A stretch of 64,000 bases of DNA from Alphaproteobacteria bacterium (GTDB lineage Bacteria > Pseudomonadota > Alphaproteobacteria > CALKHQ01). The stretch covers positions 1,568,001-1,632,000 of the forward strand of contig CBDDFZ010000001.1 of assembly GCA_965227515.1 (NCBI GenBank), written 5' to 3'. Within the stretch, counting starts at the first letter, position 1. The number at the start of each line of letters is the position of its first letter. The notes beneath the pieces were generated by a model. That model saw only the letters and a list, made by a program, of their open reading frames with translations, did not search any database and was not told the origin of the DNA. A program made the position numbers and the translations under genes. Shown in pieces: positions 27,838 through 45,447 of this stretch.

Positions 27838-28000
27838 TGTGAGATCAGGTCGGCCGCGGCAGACCAACATCGGGGCTTGAGGAGGTGTAGATGGGCTAAC
27901 GGCCCTTGTTTGGTGGCGTGCATGAGTGGTCGTCCCTCAAGATGTCGGTGTCATACACGGAGTCGGGTTTGCCGCTCCAAGACATCGAGGAGAGACGACC

Positions 28001-29038
28001 ATGAACTACTATGCCGGGATTGACGTTTCTTTGGAATGGTCATCGGTGTGCGTTGTTGACGGCGCGGGCGGGATTGTCTGCGAGGCTCGTATTGCGAGCA
28101 CGCCGGCGGGTTTGTTGTTGTGGTTTGGGTCTTTGGGGATTTCGGTTGAGCGGATTGGTCTTGAGGCGGGGCCGTTGTCGCAATGGCTTGTGCGGGGATG
28201 TAGCGAGGGCGGTCTTTCGGTTGAGTTGCTGGAGACGCGTCATGTTGCGCGAGCGCTTTCGACGATGCCGGTGAAGTCGGACCGCTCGGACGCACGCGGG
28301 ATTGCTCAGCTGATGCGTGTGGGCTGGTTTCGTCCGGTTCACTGCAAGTCTTTGGCGGCCCAGGAGATGCGGGCCCTTTTGAAGGGTCGCGACCAGCTCC
28401 GCGCGAAGCTGCACGATCTTGAGATGCACCTTCGTGGTCAGCTGCGGAACTTCGGGCTGAAGGTAGGGCACACCACCAGGCGCAGCTTTTCGACACGTAT
28501 TTCGGAGCTTGTGGCGGGGCATCCGGTACTGGAGGCGGGGGCGCTGCTGTCGGCACGCGATGGCCTGTTGCTATCGTTCACGGCGCTGGACCGGCAGGTC
28601 CGGGCGGCGGCGCAGGCCGACGATCGCGCTCGCCTGCTGATGACGGTGCCGGGCGTGGGGAGCATTGTCGGACTGACCTACTTGTCGGGAGTGGACGACC
28701 CCGGGCGGTTTGCCTCGTCGCGCCTGGTGGGTGCGCACTTCGGCCTGACGCCGACCAAGCGCCAGTCGGGCGAGAGCGAGGTGATGGGGCGGATATCGAA
28801 GGTAGGGGACGCCGATGTGCGCTCGGCCCTCTATGAGGCGGCACACGTGGCTCTGACCCGGCCGATCGAGGGCGGCTGGCTGAAGAGCTGGGCGATGAAG
28901 CTGGCCAGGCGTGCGGGCATGAGGAAGGCGAAGGTCGCGCTGGCGCGCCGGCTCGCCGTGATCATGCACCGGATGTGGGTTGACGGCACACCGTTCAACC
29001 ATGCCGGACCGGTGCGCCCGGCGATGGCGACAGCATGA
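28001..29038 (+). CDS. IS110 DEDD recombinase/transposase
   Basis: GIDVS, LEAG, KSDRSDA, TVPGVG, GLTPTKRQSG (catalytic Ser), ALARRLA. Confidence 0.95.
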   Translation: MNYYAGIDVSLEWSSVCVVDGAGGIVCEARIASTPAGLLLWFGSLGISVERIGLEAGPLSQWLVRGCSEGGLSVELLETRHVARALSTMPVKSDRSDARGIAQLMRVGWFRPVHCKSLAAQEMRALLKGRDQLRAKLHDLEMHLRGQLRNFGLKVGHTTRRSFSTRISELVAGHPVLEAGALLSARDGLLLSFTALDRQVRAAAQADDRARLLMTVPGVGSIVGLTYLSGVDDPGRFASSRLVGAHFGLTPTKRQSGESEVMGRISKVGDADVRSALYEAAHVALTRPIEGGWLKSWAMKLARRAGMRKAKVALARRLAVIMHRMWVDGTPFNHAGPVRPAMATA

Positions 29039-29094
29039 TGGCCGCGGCATAAGGAGAACCGACACACGAGCTTCGACGGGCACCGACACCGGCC

Positions 29095-29265
29095 CGTCGA
29101 GCGCCGTCCCGCGCCGGGACGATGGATCAGGTCAGGCCGCCATCCGGGATGTCGCCTCGCATGAGAGCACGCTTCCGTAGATTGGACCGACCGATCCTCG
29201 CATATCCATCTTGGCGGCGGCCCTGCGCCGACCCCGTACAGAAGCATGACCCAGGCGCCGGGACG
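29095..29265 (+). ncRNA. Putative bridge/seekRNA of IS copy 1 (boundaries approximate)
   Basis: Hairpin GTCCC-GCGCC-GGGAC; target guides CATCCGGG (29141-48) and CCGTAG (29175-80); donor guides CCATCTT (29206-12) and TACAGAAG (29237-44). Confidence 0.8.
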
Positions 29266-29304
29266 ACGAAAAAGGGATTGACCAACAATGGCCCGTTACA
29301 GAAG

Positions 29305-29385
29305 CCCGGATGGAGCGAAGCGCAATCCGGGGAACTCTGAGGTGAAGGTATGTCCCCGGGTTGCACTTCGTTCCACCCGGGCTAC
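29305..29385. repeat. GTAG-type REP doublet (left REP split by IS110; its GTAG is at 27887-90)
   Basis: CCCGGATGGAGCGAAGCGCAATCCGGG ... CCCGGGTTGCACTTCGTTCCACCCGGGCTAC. Confidence 0.88.
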
Positions 29386-30574: not shown

Positions 30575-30725
30575 GCCGTGAGATGGTCCTGGGCGACGAT
30601 CATGGGTGACGATGGAGCGCCGGGTCCGCTTGGCACCGGTCGCATGGGGCGCGATAGCCGGCTCTCCCGTCACCTGCTAACTGCGCCCAAAATGGTTTGC
30701 GCGGCGTTAACGCCAGCGAAACCAT

Positions 30726-30839: not shown

Positions 30840-30887
30840 AGTGGAATGGCGCCGCCAGAAAAGACGCGGCCGAACTGCAGGATCAAG

Positions 30888-32060
30888 ATGACCCACATCG
30901 CTACCACATTCGATGCCCCGCTGCCCTCCGGCCGGACCCGCTGGCTCGGGCGGGTGCTGACGGCCCTGGCCGCGGCGACCATGGCATTGGCCTCCGGCTG
31001 GCCCGTTCCGGCGGACGCCGCGCGGATCAAGGACATCGTCGAGTTCGAGGGCGTGCGCGACAACATGCTGGTCGGCTACGGCATCGTGGTCGGCCTGGAT
31101 GGCACTGGCGACAGCCTCCAGAACTCGCCGTTCACCGAGCAGAGCCTGGTCGGCATGCTGGAGCGCCTGGGCATTTCCGTGCGCAACGCCAATCTCAGGA
31201 CCGCCAATATCGCCGCCGTAATGGTGACGGCGACCCTGCCGCCGTTCTCGCGCCAGGGCAGCCGCATCGACATCACCGTGAGTTCGCTGGGCGACGCCAC
31301 CAGCCTGTCCGGCGGCACCCTGCTGGTCACCCCGCTGTTGGGCGCGGACGGCGAGGTCTATGCGGTCGGCCAGGGGCCGATCCAGGTCGGCGGCTTCGTC
31401 GCCCAGGGCGACGCCGAGACCGTTACCCGCGGCGTGCCGACCACCGGCGAGATCGCCAACGGCGCCATCATCGAGCGCGAGATCGGGTTCGAGCTCGCCG
31501 AGCTCGGCGTGGTCCGCATGGCGCTGCGCAACCCCGACTTCACCACCGCACGCCGGCTGGCCAACGTGATCAACGCCAACATCGGCGGCGGCGTGGCGCG
31601 CGCCATCGACCCGACCACTGTCGTGGCCGACATTCCGGGCCGCTACAACGGCGACATCGTCGCTTTCATCGGCGACATCGAGCAGCTCGACGTCCAGCCC
31701 GATCAGGTCGCCCGCGTGGTGATCGACGAATCGACCGGCGTCATCGTCATCGGCAACGACGTGCGCATCAGCACCGTCGCCATCGCCCAGGGCAACCTGA
31801 CCATCCGGGTGACCGAGACGCCCCAGGTCGACCAGGCCCAGCCGCTGGCCCCGAATGGCGAGACAGTGGTGGTGCCGAACACCAACATCGTGGTCGACGA
31901 CGACGCCGACCGCCGGCTGGCCCTGTTGCAGGACACCATTTCGCTGGAAGAGCTGGTCAACGGCCTGAATGCCCTGGGCCTGGGGCCGCGCGACCTGATT
32001 TCGATCCTCCAGGCGATCAAGGCGGCCGGCGCGATGCAGGCCGAGCTGGAGGTGCGCTGA
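30888..32060 (+). CDS. flgI: Flagellar P-ring protein
   Basis: RIKDIV..EGVRDN.LVGYG.VVGLDGTGD, AAVMVTA.LPPF, SILQAIKAAGA. Confidence 0.97.
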   Translation: MTHIATTFDAPLPSGRTRWLGRVLTALAAATMALASGWPVPADAARIKDIVEFEGVRDNMLVGYGIVVGLDGTGDSLQNSPFTEQSLVGMLERLGISVRNANLRTANIAAVMVTATLPPFSRQGSRIDITVSSLGDATSLSGGTLLVTPLLGADGEVYAVGQGPIQVGGFVAQGDAETVTRGVPTTGEIANGAIIEREIGFELAELGVVRMALRNPDFTTARRLANVINANIGGGVARAIDPTTVVADIPGRYNGDIVAFIGDIEQLDVQPDQVARVVIDESTGVIVIGNDVRISTVAIAQGNLTIRVTETPQVDQAQPLAPNGETVVVPNTNIVVDDDADRRLALLQDTISLEELVNGLNALGLGPRDLISILQAIKAAGAMQAELEVR

Positions 32061-32061
32061 C

Positions 32062-32391
32062 ATGGACAACGCGATCTTCGATCTGGTCGGCACCACCAGC
32101 CCGGCGGCCCTGCGCGGCCTGCAAGCCGACAGCCCGGTGCCGACCCCGAAGCCGGGCGACGACGTGCACGAGGCGGCGGAGACCTTCGAGGCCTTCGTCC
32201 TCGGCCAGTTCGTCGAGATCATGTTCCAAGGGGTGGACGACGACCCGCTGTTCGGCGGTGGCCAGGGTGCCGCGGTGTACCGGTCGCTGTTGCACCGGGA
32301 GTACGCCAACCACATGGCCGCCAGCGGCGGCATCGGCATCGCCGATCAAGTTGCGGCAGAACTGCTGCGAGCACAGGAGACGAGTCAATGA
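32062..32391 (+). CDS. flgJ: Rod-binding protein (FlgJ N-terminal type)
   Basis: EAAETFEA, FGGGQG..VYRSLL..EYA..MA..GGIGIAD. Confidence 0.8.
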   Translation: MDNAIFDLVGTTSPAALRGLQADSPVPTPKPGDDVHEAAETFEAFVLGQFVEIMFQGVDDDPLFGGGQGAAVYRSLLHREYANHMAASGGIGIADQVAAELLRAQETSQ

Positions 32392-32876
32392 GCCAAGCCC
32401 AGACAGCTGCCCAGCGCCAGCCAACCGCGCCCGAACCACACGCGTTGCAGCGCCAGCGCGCCCGGACCCTGATCTCGACGGCGGAACGGCTGAGCGACGT
32501 TTTGTGCACCGAGGCCACGGCCCTGCGCGCCATGCGGTTTGACGACGCCGCCGAGCTCAACGTGGAGAAATCCACCCTGCTGGAGGTCTACGACCGCTGC
32601 ATGAAGGATGTGGTGGCGGACGGCGGCCTGCCGGAGGTGGTGCTGGACATGGAGACCCGCAGCGCCCTGCGCCATGCCGGCGAGCGCCTGATCGACGTGA
32701 CCCGCGACAGCGAGCGCACGATCAAGGCGATGCAGCAGGTGAACGAGCGCGTGCTGGCCGCGATCATCGACGCGGCGCGCGAACAGCGGGTGCAGAAAAC
32801 CGGCTACGGCGCCAACGGCGTCAGCGCGGCGATGTCGGAGAACAAGGTCTCCCTGGCGCTGGACCGCAGCCTCTGA
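32388..32876 (+). CDS. Putative FlgN-like flagellar chaperone
   Basis: Helical protein between flgJ and flgK. Confidence 0.55.
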   Translation: MSQAQTAAQRQPTAPEPHALQRQRARTLISTAERLSDVLCTEATALRAMRFDDAAELNVEKSTLLEVYDRCMKDVVADGGLPEVVLDMETRSALRHAGERLIDVTRDSERTIKAMQQVNERVLAAIIDAAREQRVQKTGYGANGVSAAMSENKVSLALDRSL

Positions 32877-32948
32877 CCTGCGACTTGTGACTGACTGCGC
32901 GGCGGTCGGCCCCACACGGCCGCGCAAACATTTGCCCAGGAGGGAACG

Positions 32949-34757
32949 ATGTCATTGCAGTTGGCACTTCAATCGGCGCTGAGCGGACTGAACGTCGCGC
33001 AGGCTGGCCTGCAGGTCACGTCCAACAACATCGCCAACGTCAATACCGAGGGTTACACCAAGAAGTCGGTCGACCAGCAGTCGAATGCACTCGGCGGGCA
33101 GGGCGTCGGCGTCAAGCTGAACGCCGTCGGCCGCACGGTCGACCAGGTTCTGCTGACCCAGATTCGCGATCAGGCGGCCGTCACCGGCAAGCTGGACGTG
33201 ACGCGCCAGTTCCTGCAACTGGTCGAAAGCCAGTTCGGCCGCGTGTCCGACGACGCCTCGCTGGCCCACCGGGTCGGCGCTCTGGGCAATGCCGGCGAGG
33301 CGCTGGCAAACACGCCCGAGAGCAGCGAGCTGAGATTCTCGTTCGTCAACGAGGCCAAGCAGCTCGCGTTGCAGATCACCAACACCCACGCGCAGCTTCA
33401 GGATTCGCGGCTGAACGCCGACCGGCAGATCGAGTCCGCCGTCGGCGAGCTGAACACCCTTCTGAACGACGTCGCCAACCTGAACGTCCAGATCGCGCGG
33501 GCGATCGGCCTCAACCAGGACACCGCCGAGCTGGACGACCAGCGCGATCTGGCGCTGAAGGATATTTCCGAGCTGGTGGACATCGCCACGTTCACCCGGT
33601 CCAGCGGCGAGACGGTCATCATGACCACCAGCGGCAAGTCGCTGCTGGATGGTCCGTTCCGCAGCCTGTCGCACACCGCCGTCACCACCATGTCGTCGTC
33701 GATCTCCTACACAGCCGGCGGGTCGAGCACCGGCAACGGCACGGTCGACGGCATCTATATCGGGACTGCCGCCGTCACCTCCGACATCACCGGCGACATC
33801 TCCGGCGGCAAGCTGGGCGGGCTGATCGCCCTGCGCGACACCACGCTGCCCGCCCTGACCGCGCAGTTGGAGGAGTTCACCCAAGAGTTCCGTTACGCGA
33901 TCAACGCGCAGCACAACACCGGCACGGCGCTGCCTGCGCCCAACAGCCTGACCGGCCAGCTCACCGTTGCCGGGACCGATGCCCTGGGCACCGCGCGCAG
34001 CGGCACGTTCACCACCAGCATTCTGGATGCGAACGGCGCCGTGGTCGGCACCTGGACCAGCGCCGACCTCAGCACCTATGCCAACGTCAACGCGATGATC
34101 GCCGACTTCAACACCGCGCTCAGCCCGGCCACCGCGACGATGGCGATCAACACGGACGGCAAGCTCACAGTCACCGCCACGTCGTCCAGCAACGGCGTCG
34201 CCATCAACCAGGGCGACACGTCGGTCACGGCGGGCGGCCAGACCTATGGCGTGTCGCACTATTTCGGCCTGAACGACGTGTTCACGGTCAGCGGCGCCAC
34301 CGGCACGTCGGAATCGAGCACGCTCGCCGTGCGCGCCGACATCGTGAACGATCCGAACCTGCTGGCCCATGGCACGCTGGACGCGACCGCCACGGTGGGC
34401 GAGATCGCGCTGACCGCGGGCGACGGCTCGGCCATGACCCAGATCGCGGCGGCGTTCACGTCGACCACCACGTTCGATGCCGCGGGCGGCCAGCCGGCCA
34501 GTTCCAGCACATTCGAGACCTATGCCAGCGCCATCATCGGCTACACCGCCACCCTGGTCTCCGATGCGGACCGCGAATACACGTTCGCCGTCACCTACAG
34601 CGAGACGCTGGAGTTCCGGGCCACCAACCAATCCGGCGTCAATATCGACGAGGAACTGTCCAACATCGTGCTGCTGGAGAATGCCTACCAGGCATCGGCG
34701 CGCGTGCTGCAGGTCGCATCCGATATGCTCGAGATTCTGACCAACCTTGGCCGTTAG
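32949..34757 (+). CDS. flgK: Flagellar hook-associated protein 1
   Basis: ALSGL..AQ..L.VTSNNIANVNTEGY; SGVNIDEEL......NAYQASARV. Confidence 0.95.
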   Translation: MSLQLALQSALSGLNVAQAGLQVTSNNIANVNTEGYTKKSVDQQSNALGGQGVGVKLNAVGRTVDQVLLTQIRDQAAVTGKLDVTRQFLQLVESQFGRVSDDASLAHRVGALGNAGEALANTPESSELRFSFVNEAKQLALQITNTHAQLQDSRLNADRQIESAVGELNTLLNDVANLNVQIARAIGLNQDTAELDDQRDLALKDISELVDIATFTRSSGETVIMTTSGKSLLDGPFRSLSHTAVTTMSSSISYTAGGSSTGNGTVDGIYIGTAAVTSDITGDISGGKLGGLIALRDTTLPALTAQLEEFTQEFRYAINAQHNTGTALPAPNSLTGQLTVAGTDALGTARSGTFTTSILDANGAVVGTWTSADLSTYANVNAMIADFNTALSPATATMAINTDGKLTVTATSSSNGVAINQGDTSVTAGGQTYGVSHYFGLNDVFTVSGATGTSESSTLAVRADIVNDPNLLAHGTLDATATVGEIALTAGDGSAMTQIAAAFTSTTTFDAAGGQPASSSTFETYASAIIGYTATLVSDADREYTFAVTYSETLEFRATNQSGVNIDEELSNIVLLENAYQASARVLQVASDMLEILTNLGR

Positions 34758-34814
34758 AGCTCGATGACGTCCTCTGCCCCCCGTTCGACGGCATAAATCA
34801 AAAGGATTCGACCC

Positions 34815-35762
34815 ATGGTCGCCAGCCGTATCAGTACCTACGCCACGTCCCAGGCCAGCATCAGCCGCATGCTGGAAACCCGCCTGGAAGTGTTCCGGAA
34901 GCAGGAGCAGATCGCGTCCGGCAAGATCACACAGGAATATTCCGGCATCGCGTCGGAGACCCGGCGTCTGGTGTCGCTGGAGACCCAGTTCGCGCGGTCG
35001 GAGAAGTTCCAGAGCAACATCACCATCGTGCAACAGCGCGTCGAGTTGATGAACAACTCGGTCACGCAGATCTCCGACGCGGCCCGCGACCTGCGCAGCC
35101 TGCTGAGCTCGTCGGCCGCCGCCGACAAGGACAATTTCGAGATCGCGCTCGGCGTGCCGACCCAGGCGGCCAACGCGCGCGACTTCATCGTCGACCTGCT
35201 GAACGAGCGCGACGGCACCCGCTATCTGTTTGCCGGCGGACGCACCGACCAGCGGCCGGTCGACCTGAACAACGGCACCTACACCGCGCCGACCCCGCCG
35301 CCGTTCCCGGCCGCCGCCAACACCGACTACTACAGCGGCGGCAGCCAGGTCGCGAGTGTGCGCGCGGACGAGAACTTCACGGTGTCCTACGGCATCAACG
35401 CCGACAACCCGGCGTTCGAGAAGGTGATCCGCGCGTTCGACACCATCGCCAACCTGACGCTCTCCGACCCGCCGACGGCGGCAGAGCAGCAGGTGGCCAC
35501 AGATGCCCGCGACCTGCTGAACACGGCGATCGAGGAACTGCAGGCGCTGGAGAACAATCTGGCGGTCGACGCGCTCAGCCTGGCCAAGGCGCAGGAGCAG
35601 CACGACGTGTTCCAGCAGCGCGCGGAGGCGACCATCGCCGATATCGAGAACGTGGACACCGCCCAGGCCGTCGCCGAGCTGAACGCCGCCCAGCTTCAGT
35701 TGGAGGCGTCCTACACCACGCTGTCGCGGATCCAGAACCTCAGCCTGTTGAAGTTCTTGTAG
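34815..35762 (+). CDS. flgL: Flagellar hook-associated protein 3
   Basis: Follows flgK; QIASGK, RYLFAGGRTD..PV, QLEASY......LSLLKFL. Confidence 0.85.
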   Translation: MVASRISTYATSQASISRMLETRLEVFRKQEQIASGKITQEYSGIASETRRLVSLETQFARSEKFQSNITIVQQRVELMNNSVTQISDAARDLRSLLSSSAAADKDNFEIALGVPTQAANARDFIVDLLNERDGTRYLFAGGRTDQRPVDLNNGTYTAPTPPPFPAAANTDYYSGGSQVASVRADENFTVSYGINADNPAFEKVIRAFDTIANLTLSDPPTAAEQQVATDARDLLNTAIEELQALENNLAVDALSLAKAQEQHDVFQQRAEATIADIENVDTAQAVAELNAAQLQLEASYTTLSRIQNLSLLKFL

Positions 35763-35785
35763 GCGTTGCTGATTGCCAATACGTC

Positions 35786-35816
35786 GTAGCCCGGGTGGAG
35801 CGTAGCGCAACCCGGG
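35786..35816 (+). repeat. GTAG REP upstream of RAYT
   Basis: GTAGCCCGGGTGGAGCGTAGCGCAACCCGGG. Confidence 0.9.
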
Positions 35817-35853
35817 GATATTCTTCGGTCAGCTGGCTGGCTATCCTCGGTGG

Positions 35854-36381
35854 ATGGTTCGGTATCGCAGAAACCTCGTTCCCGGTGGCTCCTACTTTTT
35901 CACCGTGACCTTGCGGGACCGTCGGTCGAGCATTCTTGTCGACCAGATTGGCGCATTGCGAGATGCGTTCAGGGTTACGCGCGTCGCGCAACCATTCTCG
36001 GTCGACGCCATCGTTGTGTTGCCGGATCACATTCACACGGTGTGGACGCTTCCTGGAGGTGATGCCGATTACGCTGGGCGTTGGCGCCGTATCAAGGGCC
36101 GGTTCACATCACGGATAAAATCTCAGGAGGGGCAACTCGTGCCAAATGAACGGGGTGAGCATGCCCTCTGGCAGAGTCGGTTCTGGGAACACACAATTCG
36201 TGACGAGGACGACATGGAGAAGCACGTCGCCTACATCCACCACAATCCGGTGAAACACGGGCTGGTTCGACGCCCGTGCGACTGGCCGTATTCATCCTTT
36301 CATCACTACGTTCGCATGGGACATTTGCCGGCAGATTGGGCAACGGCGCCAGAGGGCCTGTCCGAGAGATTTGGCGAATAG
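35854..36381 (+). CDS. rayT: REP-associated tyrosine transposase (RAYT / TnpA-REP)
   Basis: YRR..VPGGSYFFTV, VLPDHIH (HUH), WQSRFWEHTIRD, YIHHNPVKHG, DWPYSSF; flanked by inverted REPs. Confidence 0.93.
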   Translation: MVRYRRNLVPGGSYFFTVTLRDRRSSILVDQIGALRDAFRVTRVAQPFSVDAIVVLPDHIHTVWTLPGGDADYAGRWRRIKGRFTSRIKSQEGQLVPNERGEHALWQSRFWEHTIRDEDDMEKHVAYIHHNPVKHGLVRRPCDWPYSSFHHYVRMGHLPADWATAPEGLSERFGE

Positions 36382-36398
36382 CGGCTGGACGGGAATGC

Positions 36399-36429
36399 CC
36401 CGGGTTTCGTTTCACTTCACCCGGGCTAC
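36399..36429 (-). repeat. GTAG REP downstream of RAYT (inverted)
   Basis: CCCGGGTTTCGTTTCACTTCACCCGGGCTAC. Confidence 0.88.
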
Positions 36430-36451
36430 GGTGCCGTGCCGTCGCATCCCC

Positions 36452-37561
36452 CTACCGCACCAGGTGCATGCGGTAGCGGATCATGAAGTCGGCGCCGGCC
36501 AGGCACATCACGATGGTCGCCTGGATCAGGCCGACAAGCGCCGTCGGCAAATTGTAGAACACCTGCAGCGACTGGCCGCCGACATAAAGCCCGCCAAACA
36601 GGAACGCGACCACCAGCACCAGCACCGGGTTGTTGCGGGCCAGGAACGCGATGACGATGCCGGAAAAGCCGTAGCCCGCCGCCATCGACGGGGTGAGGCG
36701 GAACTCCTGCGCCGCCGCCATCGCATAGCCGGCCAGCCCCGATAGCGCTCCCGAGGCCAGTACCGCGCCGAACACCACCAACGTCACCGGCACGCCGACC
36801 GCCAGCGACATGCGCGGGTTGGCGCCGACGAAGCGCATGTAGCGGCCGAAGCGGCTGGCGCTCATCAGCCACCAGATCACCAGTGTCGCCACCAGGGCGA
36901 CGATCAGGCCCGCGTCCACCCGCTGCCAGCCGAGCAGGGGCAGGCGCTCGAAGTCCTGGTACTGGGCGGTGCGCGGGAATTGCGCCGTCGGGTCCTGCCA
37001 GGCGCCGTAGACCAGGTGCTCCACGAACCTGAGCGCGACGTAGTTCAACAGCAGCGTGGTGATGATCTCGTTGACGCCGAGCCTGAGCTTCAGAAACGCC
37101 GGCACCACGGTCCACAAGGCACCGCCAATGATCGCGCCTGCCGCCATCAGCACGATGCGATAGGACGGGTCGCCGATGCCGTAGACGGTGAAGAACGTCG
37201 CCCCGATGACGCCGAAGAAGAACTGGCCCTCGATGCCGATGTTCCAGAACTGGACCCGGAAAGCGATGGCCGCCGACAGGCCGACCAGGGTCAGCGGGCC
37301 GGTCTCCACCAGCACGTTGCTGAGGCCGGCGGCGTCGAAGAAGGTGTAGCCGATGAACTCGTCGAACACGCCGCCGGGCGCCACGCCGGCGAGTGCCAGG
37401 ATGGCGAGCGAGATGCCGAGCCCGACCGCGATCGAGAGCGCGATCAAGAGCGCATGGTGCCAGAACGGCAAGCGTTGGCGCACCTCCAGCCGCAGACGGC
37501 GGCGCAGGCGCGGCTGGACCGTTGAGGATGCGGTGGGGGAGGGGCCGGCGGTCTCAGCCAT
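36452..37561 (-). CDS. Nucleoside/BMP-type ABC permease
   Basis: WNIGIEGQ, GVNEIITTLLLNY, GYGFSGIVIAFLARNNP. Confidence 0.92.
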   Translation of the reverse strand: MAETAGPSPTASSTVQPRLRRRLRLEVRQRLPFWHHALLIALSIAVGLGISLAILALAGVAPGGVFDEFIGYTFFDAAGLSNVLVETGPLTLVGLSAAIAFRVQFWNIGIEGQFFFGVIGATFFTVYGIGDPSYRIVLMAAGAIIGGALWTVVPAFLKLRLGVNEIITTLLLNYVALRFVEHLVYGAWQDPTAQFPRTAQYQDFERLPLLGWQRVDAGLIVALVATLVIWWLMSASRFGRYMRFVGANPRMSLAVGVPVTLVVFGAVLASGALSGLAGYAMAAAQEFRLTPSMAAGYGFSGIVIAFLARNNPVLVLVVAFLFGGLYVGGQSLQVFYNLPTALVGLIQATIVMCLAGADFMIRYRMHLVR

Positions 37562-39050
37562 GGTCCACCATCAGTGCGCCGATGGCGTGGCGGTCCGCCG
37601 GCTGCTCGAACTCGCCGACGATGCGCCCGCGGGTCATCACGCCGATGCGGTCGGCCAGGTTCAGCACCTCGTCCAGATCCTCGCTGATCACCAGCACCGC
37701 GGCCCCGCCGTCGCGGGCGCGGCGCAAATGGTCGTGGATGGCGGTGCAGGCGCGCACGTCCAACCCACGGGTCGGCGAGTGGGCGACGATCACCCGCGCG
37801 CCCTCGTTCAGCTCGCGCGCCAGCACCAGCTTCTGGGCATTGCCGCCGGAGAGCAGGCCGGCCTTGATGGTCGGGCGCGCGCCCTGGATGTCGAAACCGG
37901 CGATGGCGGCCTCGGTGTCCGCCGTCATCGGCCGCCCACGGGTCCAGGCGATGTTGCCATAGCGGCCGCGCCGCATGCCGCCGACCGCGTAGTTTTCCCG
38001 AATGGTCAAATCGTTGGCGAGGCCGTCGCTCGACCGGTCGGCCGGCACGCTGACCAGCCCCAAGCGCCGCCGGCGGCGCGGGTCGGCGGCGGTCACGGCG
38101 GCGCGGTCGATGCGGATGTCGCCGGCGCGCGCCCGGCGGATGCCGGTCAGCGCCTCGGCCAGCTCGGTCTGTCCGTTGCCGCCGACACCGGCGACGGCAT
38201 AGATCTCGCCGGCACGCACGTTCAGGCTGAGCCCGTCGACAGTGACCGCGCCGTCGTCGCGGGCGACCTGCAGCCCCTCGACATCGAACAATACCTCGCC
38301 GATGGCGGTGGCCGCCTCGCGCTGGTCGGCCGGGCTGTCGCCGACCATCATCCGGGTCAGGTCGGCCGGGGTCAGGTCGCGCGCGCCCGCCGTCGCCACC
38401 GTGCGCCCGGCCCGCATCACCGTGACCTTGTCAGCGTATTTCGGCGCCTCGCGCAGCTTGTGGGTGATCAGCACCACCGCCCGGCCCTCGTCGGCCAACC
38501 CGCGCATGGTGGCGAGCAATCGGTCGGCCTCCTCGTCGGTCAAAACGGCGGTCGGCTCGTCCAGGATCAGGATGCGCGCGCCGGAGACCAGCACCTTCAC
38601 GATCTCCGCGCGCTGCTGCTCGGCGACGGAGATTTCGGAGACCTGCCGGTCGGGGTCGATATCGAAACGCAGCGCGTCGCTGAGGCGGGCGATCTCCGCC
38701 TTCACGTGGCGCAGGCCCTGGCGCCAGGAGCGCTGCGGGTTGGCCAGCATGATGTTCTCGGCCACGGTGAACGGGCCGACCAGCTTGAAGTGCTGGTGGA
38801 CCATGCCGATGCCCGCGTCCTTGGCCGCGTTGGGGCCGGAGAACGAGACCGGCGTGCCGTCGAGCCGCATGGTGCCCTCGTCGGGCGCGTAGAGGCCGCT
38901 CGCCACCGACATCAGCGACGACTTGCCGGCGCCGTTCTCGCCCAGTAACGCGTGAACCTCGCCCCAGGCGAGGTGGAAGCTGGCGTCATCCAGGATTCGG
39001 CGACCCTCGAACGCTTTCACGATGCCATCGAGGGCGAGTGCGGAGGTCAT
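37554..39050 (-). CDS. Nucleoside-type ABC ATP-binding protein
   Basis: GENGAGKS, GMVHQHF, LDEPTAVL, LSGGNAQK, PTRGLD. Confidence 0.95.
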   Translation of the reverse strand: MTSALALDGIVKAFEGRRILDDASFHLAWGEVHALLGENGAGKSSLMSVASGLYAPDEGTMRLDGTPVSFSGPNAAKDAGIGMVHQHFKLVGPFTVAENIMLANPQRSWRQGLRHVKAEIARLSDALRFDIDPDRQVSEISVAEQQRAEIVKVLVSGARILILDEPTAVLTDEEADRLLATMRGLADEGRAVVLITHKLREAPKYADKVTVMRAGRTVATAGARDLTPADLTRMMVGDSPADQREAATAIGEVLFDVEGLQVARDDGAVTVDGLSLNVRAGEIYAVAGVGGNGQTELAEALTGIRRARAGDIRIDRAAVTAADPRRRRRLGLVSVPADRSSDGLANDLTIRENYAVGGMRRGRYGNIAWTRGRPMTADTEAAIAGFDIQGARPTIKAGLLSGGNAQKLVLARELNEGARVIVAHSPTRGLDVRACTAIHDHLRRARDGGAAVLVISEDLDEVLNLADRIGVMTRGRIVGEFEQPADRHAIGALMVDHG

Positions 39051-39136
39051 TCGGTGTTTCCACTCGCCGTCATGGGTGGACTTTGTCGGTCTTTGCCATC
39101 GAGACGTATATGTCCGCAACGAGTGCGTTCATTTCA

Positions 39137-39364
39137 CCTCTCCCCGCCGCGGAGCGGTGTGGGAGAGGAAGGGGCCCAGCCGCAGGCTGGGAAGGTGAGG
39201 GGCACGGCGCGACCGGTCGCAATCCGACGATGCCGAGGGCAAGGAAGTGACATTCTTGACCGCAAGACTGTGAAGACGCATCCAATGGAGCCGTGCCCTC
39301 ACCCTCCCGCAAACCTGCGGTTCGCGGGCCCCTCCCTCTCCCGCGCGTGCCGCTGGGAGAGGGG
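39137..39364. repeat. CCTCTCCC-type palindromic doublet
   Basis: CCTCTCCCCG..GGGAGAGG..GGTGAGGGG mirrored by CCCTCACC..CCCTCTCCCG..GGGAGAGGG. Confidence 0.75.
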
Positions 39365-39425
39365 AAACGCAGCCCTCGGCACAAGGCCGAGGGCGTCAGG
39401 TATTTCTCGAAGGCGCAGTCAGCAC

Positions 39426-40544
39426 CTATTCCAGGCTGCCGATCACGCCGTCGACGAGGTAGTCCATGCCCCACAGCGCGCCGTCGTCGGGGAACGCGCC
39501 TGCCGCGACCACTTCCTCGCCGGCCTGGTTCATGATCGGGCCGTCGAACACGTGCATCTCGCCGTTCACGATCTTCTCGCGCTCGGCCATCACCATGTCG
39601 ACCACGTCCTGCGGCACGGCGTCATTGCAGCACGCGATGTCGGTGCCGCCGTCGGCGATGCCCAGGAACGCGCCGTAGGGCGCGGTCTCCCAACCGCCGG
39701 CGACGATTTTCTCGATCTCCGGCGTCAGGTAGCGGTCCCACACCCAAGCCGACGAGCACAGGGTCGCTTCCGGCGCGAACTCGCTCATGTCGCGGTGGTG
39801 GCCGGTGCCGTAGACGCCGTTCTCCTGCGCCACGACCTGCGGGGTCGGCGTGTCGACATGCTGGCCGACGACGTCGATGCCCTGCTCGATCAGCGCCTGG
39901 GTCGCTGCGCGCTCCTGCACCGGGTCATACCAGGAGCCAGTGTAGACCACGGTGACGGTGGCGTCCGGGTTCACCTTGCGGGCGCCGAGCAGATAGGCGT
40001 TGACGGTCCAGGTGACCAGGCCCAGCGGGTAGGCGGCCACGAAGCCCAGCTTGTTGGTCTCGGTCATCGCGCCGGCGACCATGCCGCACAGATACTGGCT
40101 CTCATAGGTGCGGCCGTAGAACGACTGCAGGTTCGGCCCGTTGGTGGTGCCGGCGGGGTTCAGGAACGCGACCTCCGGATATTCCTCGCTCAGCTCCAGG
40201 AAGGCGTCGGAATAGCCGAACGCGCTGCCCAGGATGATGTTGGTGCCGCGCTGGATGTAGCGCTCGACCACCGGGCGGATGTCGGACGCGACTTCCGGCA
40301 CCTTCTCGGTGAACGGAATCTCGATGCCCAGCGCCTCTTCCATGCGCACCCTGGCTTCCTCCAGCGCCTGCACCCAGCCGCCGTCGTCGCGCACATTGAA
40401 ATAGACCCAGGCAACCTGCGGATCGCCCTCCAGGGTGAAGCCTTGCGCGCTCGCCGTGGTGGCCGCCGCGCCGATGGCCAATGCCGCCCCCAGCGTGGCC
40501 CCCAGCGCTGCCCCAACTGCCTTTACGCCGAATCTCGTCTGCAT
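39426..40544 (-). CDS. BMP-family ABC substrate-binding protein
   Basis: Signal peptide; DDGGW, SAFGY, YLCGMVAG.MT.TNKLGFV, GSWYDP..E. Confidence 0.92.
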   Translation of the reverse strand: MQTRFGVKAVGAALGATLGAALAIGAAATTASAQGFTLEGDPQVAWVYFNVRDDGGWVQALEEARVRMEEALGIEIPFTEKVPEVASDIRPVVERYIQRGTNIILGSAFGYSDAFLELSEEYPEVAFLNPAGTTNGPNLQSFYGRTYESQYLCGMVAGAMTETNKLGFVAAYPLGLVTWTVNAYLLGARKVNPDATVTVVYTGSWYDPVQERAATQALIEQGIDVVGQHVDTPTPQVVAQENGVYGTGHHRDMSEFAPEATLCSSAWVWDRYLTPEIEKIVAGGWETAPYGAFLGIADGGTDIACCNDAVPQDVVDMVMAEREKIVNGEMHVFDGPIMNQAGEEVVAAGAFPDDGALWGMDYLVDGVIGSLE

Positions 40545-40642
40545 CCCCGTTCTCCCTCTCGCTCGCGGTACGGTCAACGCATCCAGACCCAGGATGCGTT
40601 TGACACGCCCGCCTGGACCCCCATACTGCAAAATCCCTGCCA

Positions 40643-40661
40643 GTATCCGGTATCTGGATAC
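40643..40661. promoter_or_regulatory. Probable IclR operator in divergent promoter
   Basis: GTATCC-N7-GGATAC dyad between the BMP gene and the IclR gene. Confidence 0.55.
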
Positions 40662-40754
40662 GGCATTCGGATTGCGAGTATGGAAGCGAGCCGGCGCCCA
40701 TGTCAATTGGCGCCAATCGGCCCGCCAAAGCCAGGGATCGAGGACGGGCGCCAG

Positions 40755-41576
40755 ATGGGTGATGCGGCTAAGAACGGCCCGGGGGTCGGCGGTGCGGAGA
40801 GCCCGACCACGCTGAAGGGCGTGCACCGGGCGCTGCAGGTCATCGAGTACATCGCCGAGCATCCGGGGCGGGCGAGCGAACTGGCGGAGGGGTTGGGCAT
40901 CTCCTGGGCGACCATGCACCGCACCTTGTCGGCGCTGGAGAAGACCGGGTTCCTGGAGCGCGACACGGAGAGCAACCGCTACCACATCGGCCCGCGTATG
41001 TGGTTCATCGGCTCCACCTACCTGGCCCGCCACCCGGTGCTGCAAGTGGCGCACCCCTATCTCTCGGAACTGGCCATGCGCTGCGACGGCTCGGTGCAAC
41101 TGGTCGAGCGGCTGGGCCGGCAGGCGGTGACGCTCTATGCCCACACCGCCTCCGGCGAGGTGATCACCAAGTCGACCTATGGCCACCACTTCCCGCTGCA
41201 CTGCGGCTCAAAAGGGCAGGCATTGCTGGCGTTCGAGGCACCGGCTTTCGTCGAGGACTACCTCAACGGCCCGCTGGAGACCCTGACCGCCGAGACGATC
41301 ACCGACCCCAATGAGCTGCGCGACCGGCTGGCCGACATCCGCACCGCCGGCTTCGCGGTGACCGCGGGCGACGTGCAGCCCTTCACCGGATCGCTGTCGG
41401 CGCCGGTGTTCGACCGGTCCGGCAAGGTGGTGGCGGCGGTGTGCATCATCGTGCGCCGCGCGGTGCTGGAGGACGAGAAGCAGGCGGCCGAGTTGCAGGA
41501 CCGGGTCCAGAACGCCGCACAGTCGACCTCGATCGCGCTCGGCTGGGCCCCGCGCCCGGTAACGAGGGCGGGGTAG
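40755..41576 (+). CDS. IclR-family regulator
   Basis: RALQVIE HTH, PLHCGSKGQALLAF, SLSAPVFD. Confidence 0.92.
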   Translation: MGDAAKNGPGVGGAESPTTLKGVHRALQVIEYIAEHPGRASELAEGLGISWATMHRTLSALEKTGFLERDTESNRYHIGPRMWFIGSTYLARHPVLQVAHPYLSELAMRCDGSVQLVERLGRQAVTLYAHTASGEVITKSTYGHHFPLHCGSKGQALLAFEAPAFVEDYLNGPLETLTAETITDPNELRDRLADIRTAGFAVTAGDVQPFTGSLSAPVFDRSGKVVAAVCIIVRRAVLEDEKQAAELQDRVQNAAQSTSIALGWAPRPVTRAG

Positions 41577-42324
41577 AGGGACGCCCGTCCCCTCCCGTTG
41601 TCATCCTCGGCCGGAGCGAATGCGGAGTGCCGGGGATCCATTTCACGGATCGCGCGATAACCGGAATGGACCCTCGGCCTGACGGCCAAGGGTGACAATA
41701 TTGAATTTGCCTGGATCGCCGCGCCCCGTAACGAGGGCGGGGTAGCCCAACACCCGGTCGTCATGCCCGCACTTGTTGCGGGCATCCACGTCTTGGCAAC
41801 GGTCGATGAAAGTCGTGGATGGTCGGGACAAGCCCGACCATGACGTGTTTGGGGGTGTGGCCGTCCCTACGTCTTCCGCTCGGTGTAAGACCCCTGCTTA
41901 TGAAAGAATCGTAGCCCGGGTGGAACGAAGTGGAACCCGGGGACATCGAACTGCCGGCGGCCGAACCCGGGTTTCGCTACGCTCCACCCGGGCTACGCAT
42001 TGCGCTGGGCCCCGCGCCCGGTAACGAGGGCGGGGTAGTCGAACACACGGTCGTCATGCCCGCACTTGTTGCGCGCATCCACGTCTTGGCAACGGTCGAT
42101 GAAAGTCGTGGATGGTCGGGACAAGCCCGACCATGACGTGTTTGGGGGTGTGGCCGTCCCTACGTCTTCCGCTCGGTGTAAGACCCCTGCTTATGAAAGA
42201 ATCGTAGCCCGGGTGGAACGAAGTGGAACCCGGGGACATCGAACTGCGGGCGGCCGAACCCGGGTTTCGCTACGCTCCACCCAGGCTTCTGTAACGGGCC
42301 ATTGTTGGTCAATCCCTTTTTCGT

Positions 42325-42495
42325 CGTCCCGGCGCCTGGGTCATGCTTCTGTACGGGGTCGGCGCACGGCCGCCACCAAGATGGATATGCGAGGATCGGT
42401 CGGTCCAATCTACGGAAGCGTGCTCTCGTGCGAGGCGACATCCTGGATGGCGGCCTGACCTGATCCATCGTCCCGGCGCGGGACGGCGCTTGACG
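42325..42495 (-). ncRNA. Putative bridge/seekRNA of IS copy 2 (boundaries approximate)
   Basis: Guides CATCCAGG (42442-49), CCGTAG (42410-15), CCATCTT (42378-84), TACAGAAG (42346-53), all on the minus strand. Confidence 0.8.
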
Positions 42496-42560
42496 GGCCG
42501 GTGTCTGCGCCCGCCGAAGCTCGTGTGCTGGTTCTCCCTATGCGGCGGTCGTCTTTGCCA

Positions 42561-43598
42561 TTAGGCCGCTGCCATCGCCGGGCGCACCGGTCCGGCATGG
42601 TTGAACGCGGTGCCGTCAACCCACATCCGGTGCATGATCACGGCCAGCCGGCGCGCCAGCGCGACCTTCGCCTTCCTCATGCCGGCTCGCCTGGCCAGCT
42701 TCATCGCCCAGCTCTTCAACCACCCGCCCTTGATCGGCCGGGTCAGGATTACGTGCGCCGCCTCGTAAAGCGCTGCACGCACGTCCGCATCGCCCACCTT
42801 CGAGATCCGCCCCGTCATCTCGCTCTCGCCCGACTGGCGCTTGGTCGGCGTCAGGCCGAAGTGCGCCCCCACCAGGCGCGACGAGGCAAACCGCCCGGGG
42901 TCGTCCACTCCCGACAAGTAGGTCAGTCCGACAATGCTCCCCACGCCCGGCACCGTCATCAGCAGGCGAGCGCGATCGTCCGCCTGCGATGCCGCTCGGA
43001 CCTGCCGGTCCAGCGCCGTGAACGATAGCAACAGGCCATCGCGTGCCGACAGCAGCGCCCCCGCCTCCAGTACCGGATGCCCCGCCACAAGCTCCGAAAT
43101 ACGTGTCGAAAAGCTGCGCCTGGTGGTGTGCCCTACCTTCAGCCCGAAGTTCCGCAGCTGACCACGAAGGTGCATCTCAAGATCGTGCAGCTTCGCGCGG
43201 AGCTGGTCGCGACCCTTCAAAAGGGCCCGCATCTCCTGGGCCGCCAAAGACTTGCAGTGAACCGGACGAAACCAGCCCACACGCATCAGCTGAGCAATCC
43301 CGCGTGCGTCCGAGCGGTCCGACTTCACCGGCATCGTCGAAAGGGCCCGCGCAACATGACGCGTCTCCAGCAACTCAACCGAAAGACCGCCCTCGCTACA
43401 TCCCCGCACAAGCCATTGCGACAACGGCCCCGCCTCAAGACCAATCCGCTCAACCGAAATCCCCAAAGACCCAAACCACAACAACAAACCCGCCGGCGTG
43501 CTCGCAATACGAGCCTCGCAGACAATCCCGCCCGCGCCGTCAACAACGCACACCGATGACCATTCCAAAGAAACGTCAATCCCGGCATAGTAGTTCAT
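42561..43598 (-). CDS. IS110 DEDD recombinase/transposase
   Basis: 345 aa; 8 substitutions relative to copy 1. Confidence 0.95.
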   Translation of the reverse strand: MNYYAGIDVSLEWSSVCVVDGAGGIVCEARIASTPAGLLLWFGSLGISVERIGLEAGPLSQWLVRGCSEGGLSVELLETRHVARALSTMPVKSDRSDARGIAQLMRVGWFRPVHCKSLAAQEMRALLKGRDQLRAKLHDLEMHLRGQLRNFGLKVGHTTRRSFSTRISELVAGHPVLEAGALLSARDGLLLSFTALDRQVRAASQADDRARLLMTVPGVGSIVGLTYLSGVDDPGRFASSRLVGAHFGLTPTKRQSGESEMTGRISKVGDADVRAALYEAAHVILTRPIKGGWLKSWAMKLARRAGMRKAKVALARRLAVIMHRMWVDGTAFNHAGPVRPAMAAA

Positions 43599-43899
43599 GG
43601 TCGTCTCTCCTCGATGTCTTGGAGCGGCAAACCCGACTCCGTGTATGACACCGACATCTTGAGGGACGACCACTCATGCACGCCACCAAACAAGGGCCGT
43701 TAGCCCATCTACGCATCGCGCTGGATCGCCGCGCCCGGTGACGAGGGCGGGGTAGCCAAACACCCGGTCGTCATTGCGAGGAGCGCGGCACGCGCGACGC
43801 GGCAATCCAGAGGGACATTAGGCACGTGCACCGCAATCGCCTGGATCGCCCATCGGTTTTTGGGGCCGCCATTTGGCGGCTCGCGATGACGGCAAGAGT

Positions 43900-44685
43900 C
43901 TACGTCTTCCGCTCGGTGTACGACCCCTGCAGGTTCTGGAACATCTCCACCAGCGCGTCGACGGCGGCGTCGATCATGACCTTGCCGGACTCCGCGGTCG
44001 CGTGCTTCGGCGCACCGAAGATCGACGCATGGTTGGTGGTCGGGTTGGGCCGGCGCTGATAGGTGCGCACCGGCTCCACCGGTGCCACCAGGTCCCAGCC
44101 GACCAGCGGCGCGTGCACGCCCTCCAGCCGGTCCATGTGCACCAGCTCCGGCCGCGTCGCGAGCTGGAACGAGGTCTCGAACTCGCCGCCATGGCCCATG
44201 CCGCCGACCTCCGACTTGCGTGCGGCATGGATGGCAGCGGCCCCCGGCTCCCAGTAGCTGACGGCGGAGACCTTGAACTCGTAACGCTCGTCCAGATCGT
44301 CGACCAGCCGGCGCGCCACCGCATCGTTCGAGGTGCCGTTGGGCCGGTTGCCGTTGAGGATGATCAGGTGCTTGAAGCCCTGCTTGATCAGCGCGCTGCC
44401 AACCTCGTAGACCAGTTCCTGGTAGGTCGGGATCGACAGCGAGATGGTGCCCATGAAGTGCTCGAAGGTCTTTGAGATGCCATAGGCAATGGGCGGCGCC
44501 ACCACCGCGCCGATCCGCTCCGCCACCCGCAGCGCCATGTATTCGGCCTGGTGGGTGTCGGTGTCGACCGGCATGTGCGGGCCGTGCGCCTCGGTCGCGC
44601 CGGTGGGCAGGATGACGGCCCGCCCCTCGGCGACGACCTCCGCCACTTCGTCATAGGTCATGGTCGAAAGGGCAACGTTCATCAT
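43900..44685 (-). CDS. Creatininase-family amidohydrolase
   Basis: LPTGATEAHGPHMPVDTD, YGIS, GTISL, HGGEFETS. Confidence 0.9.
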   Translation of the reverse strand: MMNVALSTMTYDEVAEVVAEGRAVILPTGATEAHGPHMPVDTDTHQAEYMALRVAERIGAVVAPPIAYGISKTFEHFMGTISLSIPTYQELVYEVGSALIKQGFKHLIILNGNRPNGTSNDAVARRLVDDLDERYEFKVSAVSYWEPGAAAIHAARKSEVGGMGHGGEFETSFQLATRPELVHMDRLEGVHAPLVGWDLVAPVEPVRTYQRRPNPTTNHASIFGAPKHATAESGKVMIDAAVDALVEMFQNLQGSYTERKT

Positions 44686-44802
44686 TGTCTCCCGCGCGCA
44701 CATCGGCTTGTGTTGTCCGTCTGCCGGATATTATGCTCGGATAGCGGACATCGACAACTGTCCGCATATCCACCCGTCACCACCCGCCGAGAGTGCCGCC
44801 CA

Positions 44803-45447
44803 TTGCCCCACGTCAGCCAAGCCTTCACGGTCGACCAGCCGATTGCCGCGGTGTGGGACTATTTTCAGGACGTGCCGGCCGTGGTGACCTGCATGCCGGG
44901 GCTGGAGCTGACCGGCCAGACCGGCGAGGACAGCTACACCGGGCGGGTGAAGATCAAGCTGGGGCCGATCACCGCCGCATTCGACGGCGAGGCGACGTTC
45001 ACCGACCGCAATCCCGATACGCGCACGTGCGCGCTGACCGCCAAGGGCATCGACAAGAAGGGCGGCAACCGGGCCCAGGCCAAGGTTGAGTACGCGATGA
45101 GCGAGCCGGCGCCAGGCCGGACCGAAGTGTCGCTGGAGGGCGACATCACGCTGACCGGCGCGCTGGCGCAGATGGGGCGCGGCGGCATCATCAACGACGT
45201 GGCGGCGCAGCTGACCGAGCAGTTCGCGACCGCGCTCAGGGCCAAGCTCGCGAGCGCGGCGCCGGCATCTCAGGCGGCACCTCAGGCGGCACCTCAGGCG
45301 GCACCCGCGCCTGCTTCGTCGGCACAGGCTGCATCGCCACAACCCTCGCCCTCGCCGTCGCCTGAGGCAGCAGGCGAGATCCGCGCCGGCAGTTTGATCT
45401 GGAAGGTGATCTGGCACCGGCTGACCGGTTGGTTGCGCCGGTCCTGA
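44803..45447 (+). CDS. CoxG / SRPBCC-family protein
   Basis: VWD.FQDVP.V..CMPG, KIKLGPI, G.LAQMGRG; Ala/Pro/Gln linker. Confidence 0.85.
   Translation: MPHVSQAFTVDQPIAAVWDYFQDVPAVVTCMPGLELTGQTGEDSYTGRVKIKLGPITAAFDGEATFTDRNPDTRTCALTAKGIDKKGGNRAQAKVEYAMSEPAPGRTEVSLEGDITLTGALAQMGRGGIINDVAAQLTEQFATALRAKLASAAPASQAAPQAAPQAAPAPASSAQAASPQPSPSPSPEAAGEIRAGSLIWKVIWHRLTGWLRRS

Follow-up and report, generated by a model that had tools for sequence, protein, structure and literature searches.

A 64,000-nucleotide stretch of the genome of an alphaproteobacterium (hereafter the window; contig CBDDFZ010000001.1 of assembly GCA_965227515.1) contains an insertion sequence (IS) in two copies that are inverted relative to each other and 96% and 94% alike over two aligned blocks. 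Each copy abuts a REP and bears, near its 3′ end, a short segment that could pair with it; between the copies, the segment differs at one base, and the REP differs at the position opposite. The locus thus raises a question: has this element been naturally retargeted to a variant of its host's repeats through a single base of a guide RNA? A sequence-only reading of the window had proposed as much, while granting that two copies were too few to exclude chance. We agree with that reservation; the 20 guide-bearing copies in the genome as a whole permit a test.

An IS1111-group element inserted at REPs

Both transposases match the Pfam families PF01548 (E = 9e-13) and PF02371 (E = 1e-19 and 2e-20), i.e., a DEDD (RuvC-like) N-terminal domain and an IS110-type C-terminal domain are present in each. 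With a score of 231 bits (cut-off 140), the copy 1 protein also matches the NCBIfam model NF033542, “IS110 family RNA-guided transposase.” Between the stop codon of copy 1 (29036-29038) and the end of the IS (29304), 266 nt of non-coding sequence lie downstream of the gene, compared with 110 nt upstream (27891-28000). The longer non-coding region is thus the downstream one, as in the IS1111 group, and the arms of a subterminal inverted repeat each lie 6 nt inside their IS end in this copy. Judged by its domains, the NF033542 match, the 266-nt 3′ non-coding end, and the subterminal inverted repeat (cf. PMC11187229), the element is a member of the IS1111 group of the IS110 family, in a lineage that has no name. 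The transposase proteins of the closest loci that we found are 43-68% identical. A megablast search of a plasmid collection with copy 2 gave no match, and when the 3′ end of the IS was compared at the DNA level with 100 related genomes, it matched the window's own genome only.

Comparison of empty and occupied sites shows that insertion is site-specific and duplicates nothing of the target other than a dinucleotide core, AG. An empty site reads GTAGCCCGGGTG, and an occupied one reads GTAG, the IS (ending in GAAG), and CCTGGGTG. Read at the junctions, empty GTAG CCCGGGTG corresponds to occupied GTAG / ATGGGC ... ACAGAAG / CCTGGGTG, where slashes mark the IS boundaries; AG alone is common to the target and the IS. 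On the opposite strand, this core is CT, the same dinucleotide as the core of IS621. Counted outward from the AG core, the variable flank base comes third and is therefore part of the target, not of the IS. We also considered the possibility that the variable T belongs to the IS and rejected it: AG is all that the donor junction has in common with the target, and two copies that carry the G guide also have T flanks.

The features of both copies and of the neighboring empty sites are collected in the table.

Table. Features of the two IS copies and of nearby target sites in the window. The extent of copy 1 counts the 2-nt core AG with the right end.
Feature	Coordinates	Strand	Details
IS copy 1, G-guide sub-lineage “T1”	27891..29304	+	1414 nt, ATGGGC...ACAGAAG; boundaries from comparison of occupied with empty site and from alignment of the copies
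IS copy 2, A-guide sub-lineage “T2”	42286..43708	-	1423 nt
Transposase gene, copy 1	28001..29038	+	345 aa + stop; PF01548 DEDD_Tnp_IS110, PF02371 Transposase_20; NF033542
Transposase gene, copy 2	42561..43598	-	345 aa + stop; PF01548 + PF02371
Left subterminal inverted repeat, copy 1	27897..27914		Partner 29281-29298; 18 nt, 78% complementary (repeat search)
Structured core of 3′ non-coding RNA, copy 1	29112..29257	+	Outer stem P1 to P1′; predicted, RNAalifold consensus
Structured core of 3′ non-coding RNA, copy 2	42333..42478	-	Predicted; transferred from copy 1 through the alignment, gap-free here
Guide g1, copy 1, CCAUCCGGG	29140..29148	+	5′ side of target-binding loop; pairs with top strand of right flank
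Guide g2, copy 1, CCGUAG	29175..29180	+	3′ side of target-binding loop; left flank + core sense
Putative donor guide g3, copy 1, CCAUCU	29206..29211	+	Complementary to core + left end (AG ATGG)
Putative donor guide g4, copy 1, ACAGAAG	29238..29244	+	Same sense as right end + core
Guide g1, copy 2, CCAUCCAGG	42442..42450	-	Differing base at 42444
Guide g2, copy 2, CCGUAG	42410..42415	-	
Putative donor guide g3, copy 2, CCAUCU	42379..42384	-	
Putative donor guide g4, copy 2, ACAGAAG	42346..42352	-	
Left-flank GTAG, copy 1	27887..27890	+	Last two bases = core AG
Right-flank target, copy 1, CCCGGATGG	29305..29313	+	5′ arm of REP hairpin; 9/9 with g1
Left-flank GTAG, copy 2	43709..43712	-	
Right-flank target, copy 2, CCTGGGTGG	42277..42285	-	8 Watson-Crick pairs + one U.G wobble with g1
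Empty equivalent target, GTAG CCCGGGTG	41985..41996	-	Uninterrupted, reads GTAGCCCGGGTG; neighboring unit of 293-bp tandem duplication
Empty target, GTAG CCCGGGTGG	41911..41923	+	Partner REP of inverted REP pair, unit 1
Empty target, GTAG CCCGGGTGG	42204..42216	+	Partner REP, unit 2

Copy 1 guide CATCCGGG (29141-29148, plus strand) pairs 8/8 with its right flank, CCCGGATG, at 29305-29312. For copy 2 (minus strand), the guide CATCCAGG at 42442-42449 forms seven Watson-Crick pairs and one U.G wobble with the flank CCTGGGTG at 42278-42285. A ninth pair, C with G, lengthens the match in both window copies. These are the pairings that the sequence-only reading had described, including the difference in the copy 2 guide that is matched by the C/T difference in the flank; all of its sequences and coordinates proved correct when we re-read them directly. 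It had also pointed to an equivalent REP at 41985-41996, and this site is indeed of the CCCGG type and unoccupied. The site and the flank of copy 2 lie in different units of a tandem duplication (293 bp; units 41719-41994 and 42012-42287, 97% identical). Four target sites are found in the two units (n = 4): the three with CCCGG are all empty, and the single CCTGG site is occupied. REP-type targets are also known for another element, ISPa11.

A predicted RNA with target and donor guides

The 3′ end of the IS appears to encode a structured RNA of the seekRNA or bridge-RNA kind, one that would be transcribed and would associate with the transposase. The RNAalifold consensus, computed from 61 sequences, contains 33 base pairs, eight of which have compensatory changes. 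For this alignment, 61 of the 65 available sequences were used; L094, L102, L110, and L112 were omitted owing to long insertions. The consensus comprises an outer stem, a long stem P2, an internal loop with g1 on its 5′ side and g2 on its 3′ side, and a hairpin P3. The two putative donor matches are in a second loop, next to stem P4. Compensatory changes occur in the stems on either side of the internal loop that holds g1 and g2. Single-sequence minimum-free-energy folds yielded two different structures that were weakly better than shuffled sequences (z = -2.0 and -1.8); because these folds diverge and their z-scores are weak, the structure rests on the alignment fold. A permissive Rfam 15 scan of positions 27000-45000 returned only miRNA and sRNA families, matched weakly and well short of their gathering scores.

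The two sides of the internal loop match opposite strands of the target. Segment g1 complements the right flank; g2, which has the sense of the left flank plus core, would pair with the bottom strand. The available text on the IS1111 seekRNAs describes them as programmable, with the top-strand match located 5′ of the bottom-strand match (PMC11187229); the g1-then-g2 order here is the same. The donor matches that flank P4, namely CCAUCU (against AG + ATGG of the left end) and ACAGAAG (identical to the right end plus core), are invariant and hence provide no covariation signal. The sequence-only reading had held that the three guide segments other than g1 are identical between the window copies. 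This observation can be extended: g2, g3, and g4 are invariant in all 20 genomic copies, and g4 is nearly so in the 61 relatives as well.

Guide versus flank across the genome

All guide-bearing copies in the whole genome (two contigs, 5.5 Mb) were tabulated together with their right flanks. The right-end 15-mer had 30 matches; the 10 without a guide, nine chance matches and one partial copy, were dropped. The genome has exactly 20 guide-bearing copies, 13 with G and seven with A at the variable guide position. The sites used by the two groups differ. Among the G-guide (CAUCCGGG) copies, nine are flanked by CCCGGATG, two by CCCGGGTG, two by CCTGGGTG, and none by CCTGGATG. The A-guide (CAUCCAGG) copies are flanked by CCTGGGTG in six cases and by CCTGGATG in one; neither CCCGGATG nor CCCGGGTG occurs beside them. 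As nine-base segments following GTAG, the target variants are CCCGGATGG, CCCGGGTGG, CCTGGATGG, and CCTGGGTGG.

CCTGG variants thus hold 7/7 A-guide copies and 2/13 G-guide copies, and CCCGG sites hold 11/13 of the latter, nine of them in the perfectly matching CCCGGATG (Fisher test of guide against flank C/T, [[11,2],[0,7]], p = 4.6e-4). The CAUCCAGG copies were not found equally in CCCGG sites; none of the seven is in one. Among the 20 genomic copies, none had inserted where the third base from the core would form an A.C mismatch.

Of course, such a table must be read against the sites on offer. Uninterrupted GTAG-prefixed sites that are empty number 60 with CCCGGGTG, 33 with CCTGGGTG, 18 with CCCGGATG, and three with CCTGGATG, such that T is found at 36/114 empty sites and, when occupied sites are included, at 46/135 (~34%). 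Assuming that all GTAG-prefixed sites are equally accessible, the probability that seven of seven A-guide copies would be in T sites is (46/135)^7 = 5.3e-4; a conservative count restricted to GGTG-type sites gives (42/104)^6 = 4.3e-3. The G-guide copies, for their part, are in perfect CCCGGATG sites in nine of 13 cases, compared with 27 of 135 available sites (20%; p = 1.7e-4 on the same assumption). Per available site, perfect matches are used ~10 times more than sites with a single U.G wobble. Within GGTG-type REPs, the direct comparison between the lineages (G-guide, 2 C:2 T; A-guide, 0:6) is not significant (Fisher p = 0.13); the significance of the association therefore rests on the background site frequencies.

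The insertions are independent events, not segmental copies, because their left flanks are unique. This comparison covered 19 of the guide-bearing copies plus the guide-less partial copy, whose left flanks are all unique sequence except for (C)GTAG: GTAG is present in 20/20, and C at -5 in 16/20. The one divergent copy outside that set (C1:694774) has CCCGTAG on its left, and its flank is otherwise unique as well. On the right, the flanks of the copies diverge from one another just past the 8-mer.

These counts bear on the claim of the sequence-only reading. Natural retargeting to a REP variant was proposed with a G-to-A change in the guide; the association between guide and site is supported, and the data would fit a change in either direction. 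In this genome, site specificity is strict for the A guide (7/7 in T sites). Overall, it is asymmetric and leaky, with 2/13 G-guide copies in CCTGG sites.

Covariation in metagenomic relatives

We wished to compare guide and flank in relatives of the element as well. A metagenome scan with the guide context and nine free positions gave 0 matches. A 22-nt scaffold motif located just upstream of the guide was found in at least 120 metagenomic stretches, of which 80 loci were listed. The guide-flank comparison took 62 of the 82 listed motif hits, the others lacking either 12 nt of flank or a recognizable right end. The comparison covered the right-flank guide, and a wobble was scored as one half. 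The g1 segment was complementary to the right flank (at least 8/9) in 38 of the 62 listed relatives (61%), as opposed to 5.7% of shuffled pairings. The register was the same as that of the window IS in 43/62. Among these 43 elements, there are 37 distinct guide-flank pairs, whose 296 cells comprise 272 Watson-Crick pairs, nine wobbles, four A.C or C.A mismatches, and 11 other mismatches. By its covariation with the right flank across relatives, the 8-mer segment is the predicted target guide.

One relative, L069, has the guide CAAUCCAGG beside CCCGGAUUG, i.e., an A guide with a CCCGG flank and an A.C mismatch at the very position that varies in the genome studied here. The guide-site rule is therefore not absolute. 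The mismatch in L069 may have arisen by mutation after insertion.

Two sub-lineages and the direction of change

Copies within each lineage are 99.3-99.4% identical and the reading frames of all 20 are intact; both lineages thus look recently active. Their transposases (lineage consensuses) differ at 11 of 347 residues, six of these in the C-terminal domain. One copy, C1:926326, combines stretches of both lineages: IS nt 713-1064 resemble T1, and everything from nt 1100 onward, with the A guide, resembles T2. At the six C-terminal-domain differences (206, 263, 264, 277, 286, and 292), this mosaic is T1 throughout; residues 66, 68, 69, 333, and 346 are still linked to the A guide. The copy sits in CCTGGGTG, a CCTGG site, as the A guide predicts. 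The partial copy (C1:~998353-999181) is devoid of both target guides and T2/D-like elsewhere; it is located in CCTGGGTGG. A private 6-nt deletion common to both window copies indicates that gene conversion between IS copies does occur.

All seven A-guide insertions descend from one guide state, and the guide change accordingly counts as a single event. The markers of its direction are as follows. A-guide copies are basal in a nucleotide tree with outgroups (69 sequences), amino-acid polarity is mixed at the eight discriminating positions that were tabulated, and the nearest relatives with similar guides carry G. Contigs of four other sequencing runs were compared with the 3′ end of copy 1. These contigs, which speak to presence and not to absence and in which guide-flank linkage is unsafe for a repeated element, have G at 29146 in every covering contig; the X9 and X14 contigs also have T>C at 29162, i.e., a G guide combined with a T2-type base.

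A pairing model and its alternatives

How might a single base divide the sites? The IS inserts at GTAG/CCYGGRTGG (the slash denoting the insertion point), at the foot of a REP hairpin. As we envision it, guide g1, CCAUCC[G/A]GG, would pair with the top strand of the first nine bases to the right of the insertion point; g2, CCGUAG, on the opposite side of the first loop, would match the left flank and the AG core, and the two guides of the second loop would serve the IS ends. The genome holds two sub-lineages, both seemingly active, whose g1 segments are one base apart. The presumed pairing rules are that a guide G accepts C or, less well, T; that A accepts T only; and that U accepts A or, less well, G. 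Under these rules, the G-guide lineage would prefer the perfectly matching CCCGGATG REPs while tolerating U.G and G.T wobbles. The A-guide lineage would be confined to CCTGG variants, since A opposite C is a true mismatch. The single guide base would be the cause of the differing site choice, and we consider it likely that RNA pairing explains the guide-matched choices of the two sub-lineages.

A further step is a more even matter, to which we lend about as much belief as doubt: a one-base guide change split the IS into two lineages that divide the genome's REPs between them, one of which gained REPs that match it perfectly and expanded to 13 copies. Because of wobble geometry, the split would run one way only, the G guide entering T sites and the A guide not entering C sites; with 2/13 G-guide copies in CCTGG sites, as a G.T wobble permits, the partition is one-sided. 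If this proposal is true, it would represent “speciation by guide mutation” of a mobile element within a single genome, and it would provide a naturally occurring gauge of how well an IS1111-type RNA discriminates single mismatches.

Three other explanations deserve consideration. The guide polymorphism could be neutral, with A-guide copies having arrived in CCTGG REPs by chance or through a bias toward a REP subfamily or accessible regions. T sites are indeed common (~34% of candidates), the guide change is one evolutionary event, and the lineages do not differ significantly inside GGTG-type REPs (Fisher p = 0.13). Still, an outcome of 7/7 against 46/135 available sites would be rare (5.3e-4, or 4.3e-3 by the conservative count), and the guide-less T2/D-like copy constitutes an eighth insertion in a T site. 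Moreover, the G-guide lineage independently favors its own perfect match (9/13 vs. 20%, p = 1.7e-4), and the loop segment tracks the flank in 61% of the 62 listed relatives (5.7% when shuffled). We therefore regard chance or regional bias as unlikely. Could the transposase, not the RNA, read the C/T position through its 11 residue differences, six of which are in the C-terminal domain? The mosaic copy leaves some room for this notion, in that residues 66, 68, 69, 333, and 346 are linked to its A guide. The same copy, however, is T1 at all six C-terminal-domain differences and is still in a CCTGG site; in addition, the base that changed in the guide is the exact complement of the one that changed in the target, and RNA alone reprograms the targets of the IS110 and IS1111 elements in the available accounts of their study (PMC11187229, PMC11208160). 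Recognition by the transposase is thus very improbable.

Finally, the match might postdate insertion, either by C-to-T mutation at the CpG of the CCGG motif in both guide and flank or by gene conversion from the IS end into the REP flank. The guide and flank changes are both transitions, at one and the same CpG within one 5-mer; relative L069 shows an independent G-to-A at this guide position, and the deletion shared by the window copies attests to gene conversion between IS copies. Against these points, the same flank change would be needed at seven independent sites beside copies that have diverged by ~0.6%, the flanks differ from one another just beyond the 8-mer, and T is already present at 36/114 empty sites. 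Uncorrected wobbles also persist (U.G in 6/7 A-guide copies and G.T in two G-guide copies), on which account we rejected the idea that flanks were rewritten to fit the guide. Of the three, an origin after insertion seems to us the least credible. Pairing of the RNA with the REP is the explanation that we retain, and the natural-retargeting reading is supported.

Comparison with known systems

IS110 and IS1111 RNA-guided recombinases are being developed as genome-writing tools, for which discrimination of single mismatches is a practical question. The genome studied here offers a natural experiment: 20 independent insertions made with two guides one base apart, with ~135 candidate sites in four variants. 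It illustrates a way in which such elements can diversify inside one host, by tracking variants of the host's own repeats, and involves no new mechanism; it is of use chiefly because it measures single-base discrimination in nature. Because programmability and natural guide-target covariation have already been published (PMC11187229, PMC11208160), the finding is a statistically supported case, from an IS1111-group lineage that has no name, of a mechanism already known. In the literature outside supplementary tables, we found no report of two sub-lineages in one genome, one guide base apart, on matching REP variants. Comparable single-base guide variants may be present in the extended data and supplementary tables of PMC11208160, where target motifs for distinct guides are given.

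The closest counterparts are the IS1111 elements ISEc11, ISPa11, ISKpn4, and ISPst6 (Siddiquee et al. 2024, PMC11187229). As portrayed in the available text of that report, these elements share with the present one a DEDD transposase of ~340-350 aa, a 3′ non-coding region, subterminal inverted repeats, site-specific insertion, and an RNA in which the top-strand match is 5′ of the bottom-strand match. The present element differs in its distinct transposase lineage, in its target (GTAG/CCYGGRTGG), and in its two sub-lineages one guide base apart; it is known from sequence alone.

More distant is IS621 (Durrant et al. 2024, PMC11208160). The portions of that work available to us describe a two-loop RNA pairing with the target as well as the donor around a core of 2 nt (CT, equivalent to AG here), REP targets, and natural guide-target covariation across orthologues, all of which have observed or predicted parallels here; bridge RNAs were in fact defined there by guide-target covariation across 5,511 pairs. 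IS621, however, belongs to the IS110 group, and according to the same portions, its RNA lies in the left end upstream of the gene with the guides in reverse order, whereas the RNA described here is in the right end.

ISPpu10 of Pseudomonas putida also targets REP copies (preprint 10.64898/2026.03.19.712850). The available part of that study reports that, under saturation mutagenesis, G.U and G.T wobbles were tolerated and other mismatches near the core were not; an A-to-G change at RTG position 3, which creates a G.T wobble, gave comparable efficiency. This tolerance of wobbles mirrors the asymmetry between the G and A guides observed here. ISPpu10 is an IS110-group element, and its variants, as presented there, were designed and assayed experimentally; those described here arose naturally, and their effects are deduced from insertion sites.

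Differences between the IS copies

In the alignment of the IS copies, the transposase genes of both copies in the window lack six in-frame nucleotides, GGCGGT. This deletion is private to the two, as the other 18 copies are without it. The two are of separate lineages, copy 1 of T1 and copy 2 of T2; they are inverted relative to each other, at a distance of 13.5 kb. Because the deletion is found in both of these neighbors and is absent from the other 18 copies, the alignment points to gene conversion between them. Their guides have remained distinct.

The differences between the T1 and T2 lineages are not spread evenly along the IS: the two are nearly identical over IS nt 1-700, and the differences fall in clusters, including two dense blocks. 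Such a mosaic is suggestive of recombination involving other IS variants. The lineages also differ in stem P4 of the predicted RNA, which stands beside the second (putative donor) loop: at IS position -90, T2 has a U that forms a U-A pair; T1 and a divergent copy elsewhere in the genome have a C, resulting in a C.A mismatch.

Features of the IS copies, their sites and their relatives (G000:C1, a contig of this genome; L061, a metagenome locus)
Feature	Location	Strand	Detail
6-nt deletion	copy 1: around window 28533-28538; copy 2: equivalent position		alignment columns 643-648
T1/T2 difference block	IS nt 891-990 (copy 1: window about 28781-28880)		~24 differences in 100 nt
T1/T2 difference block	IS nt 1100-1209 (copy 1: window about 28990-29099)		~20 differences and a 9-nt indel
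Stem P4 variant base	window 29215 / 42375		IS position -90
Tandem duplication	window 41719-42287		293 bp, 97% identical
Divergent IS copy	G000:C1:694764-696206	-	~89% identity to copy 1
Partial IS copy	G000:C1:~998353-999181		internal deletion
Two RNA-module copies	L061:7985-8820		~680 nt apart, single contig

Insertion sites and atypical copies

Both units of a tandem duplication contain an inverted REP pair, and the second unit has copy 2 at its end. The divergent copy carries the A guide and its reading frame is intact; its flank, CCTGGATG, is a perfect match to the guide. A GTAG CCTGGGTGG site, itself uninterrupted, follows fifteen bases further along; a piece of an earlier flank may have travelled with the IS. 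In the partial copy, the internal deletion has taken out both target guides together with the gene's 3' half, but both ends and the putative donor guides are retained; this copy may be a non-autonomous derivative.

Metagenome relatives

The metagenome loci L060-L139 represent a large element family, the common features of which are the exact 22-nt scaffold motif and the right end GGCCCGTTACAGAAG. Their loop segments are hypervariable, and their guides match several distinct REP-like flanks (e.g., GGTGGGCAAAGG, GGCGCAATAAGCG and GATGGGTAGAG). At the locus with two RNA modules, the flank of the second is matched better by the guide of the first module than by the second's own.
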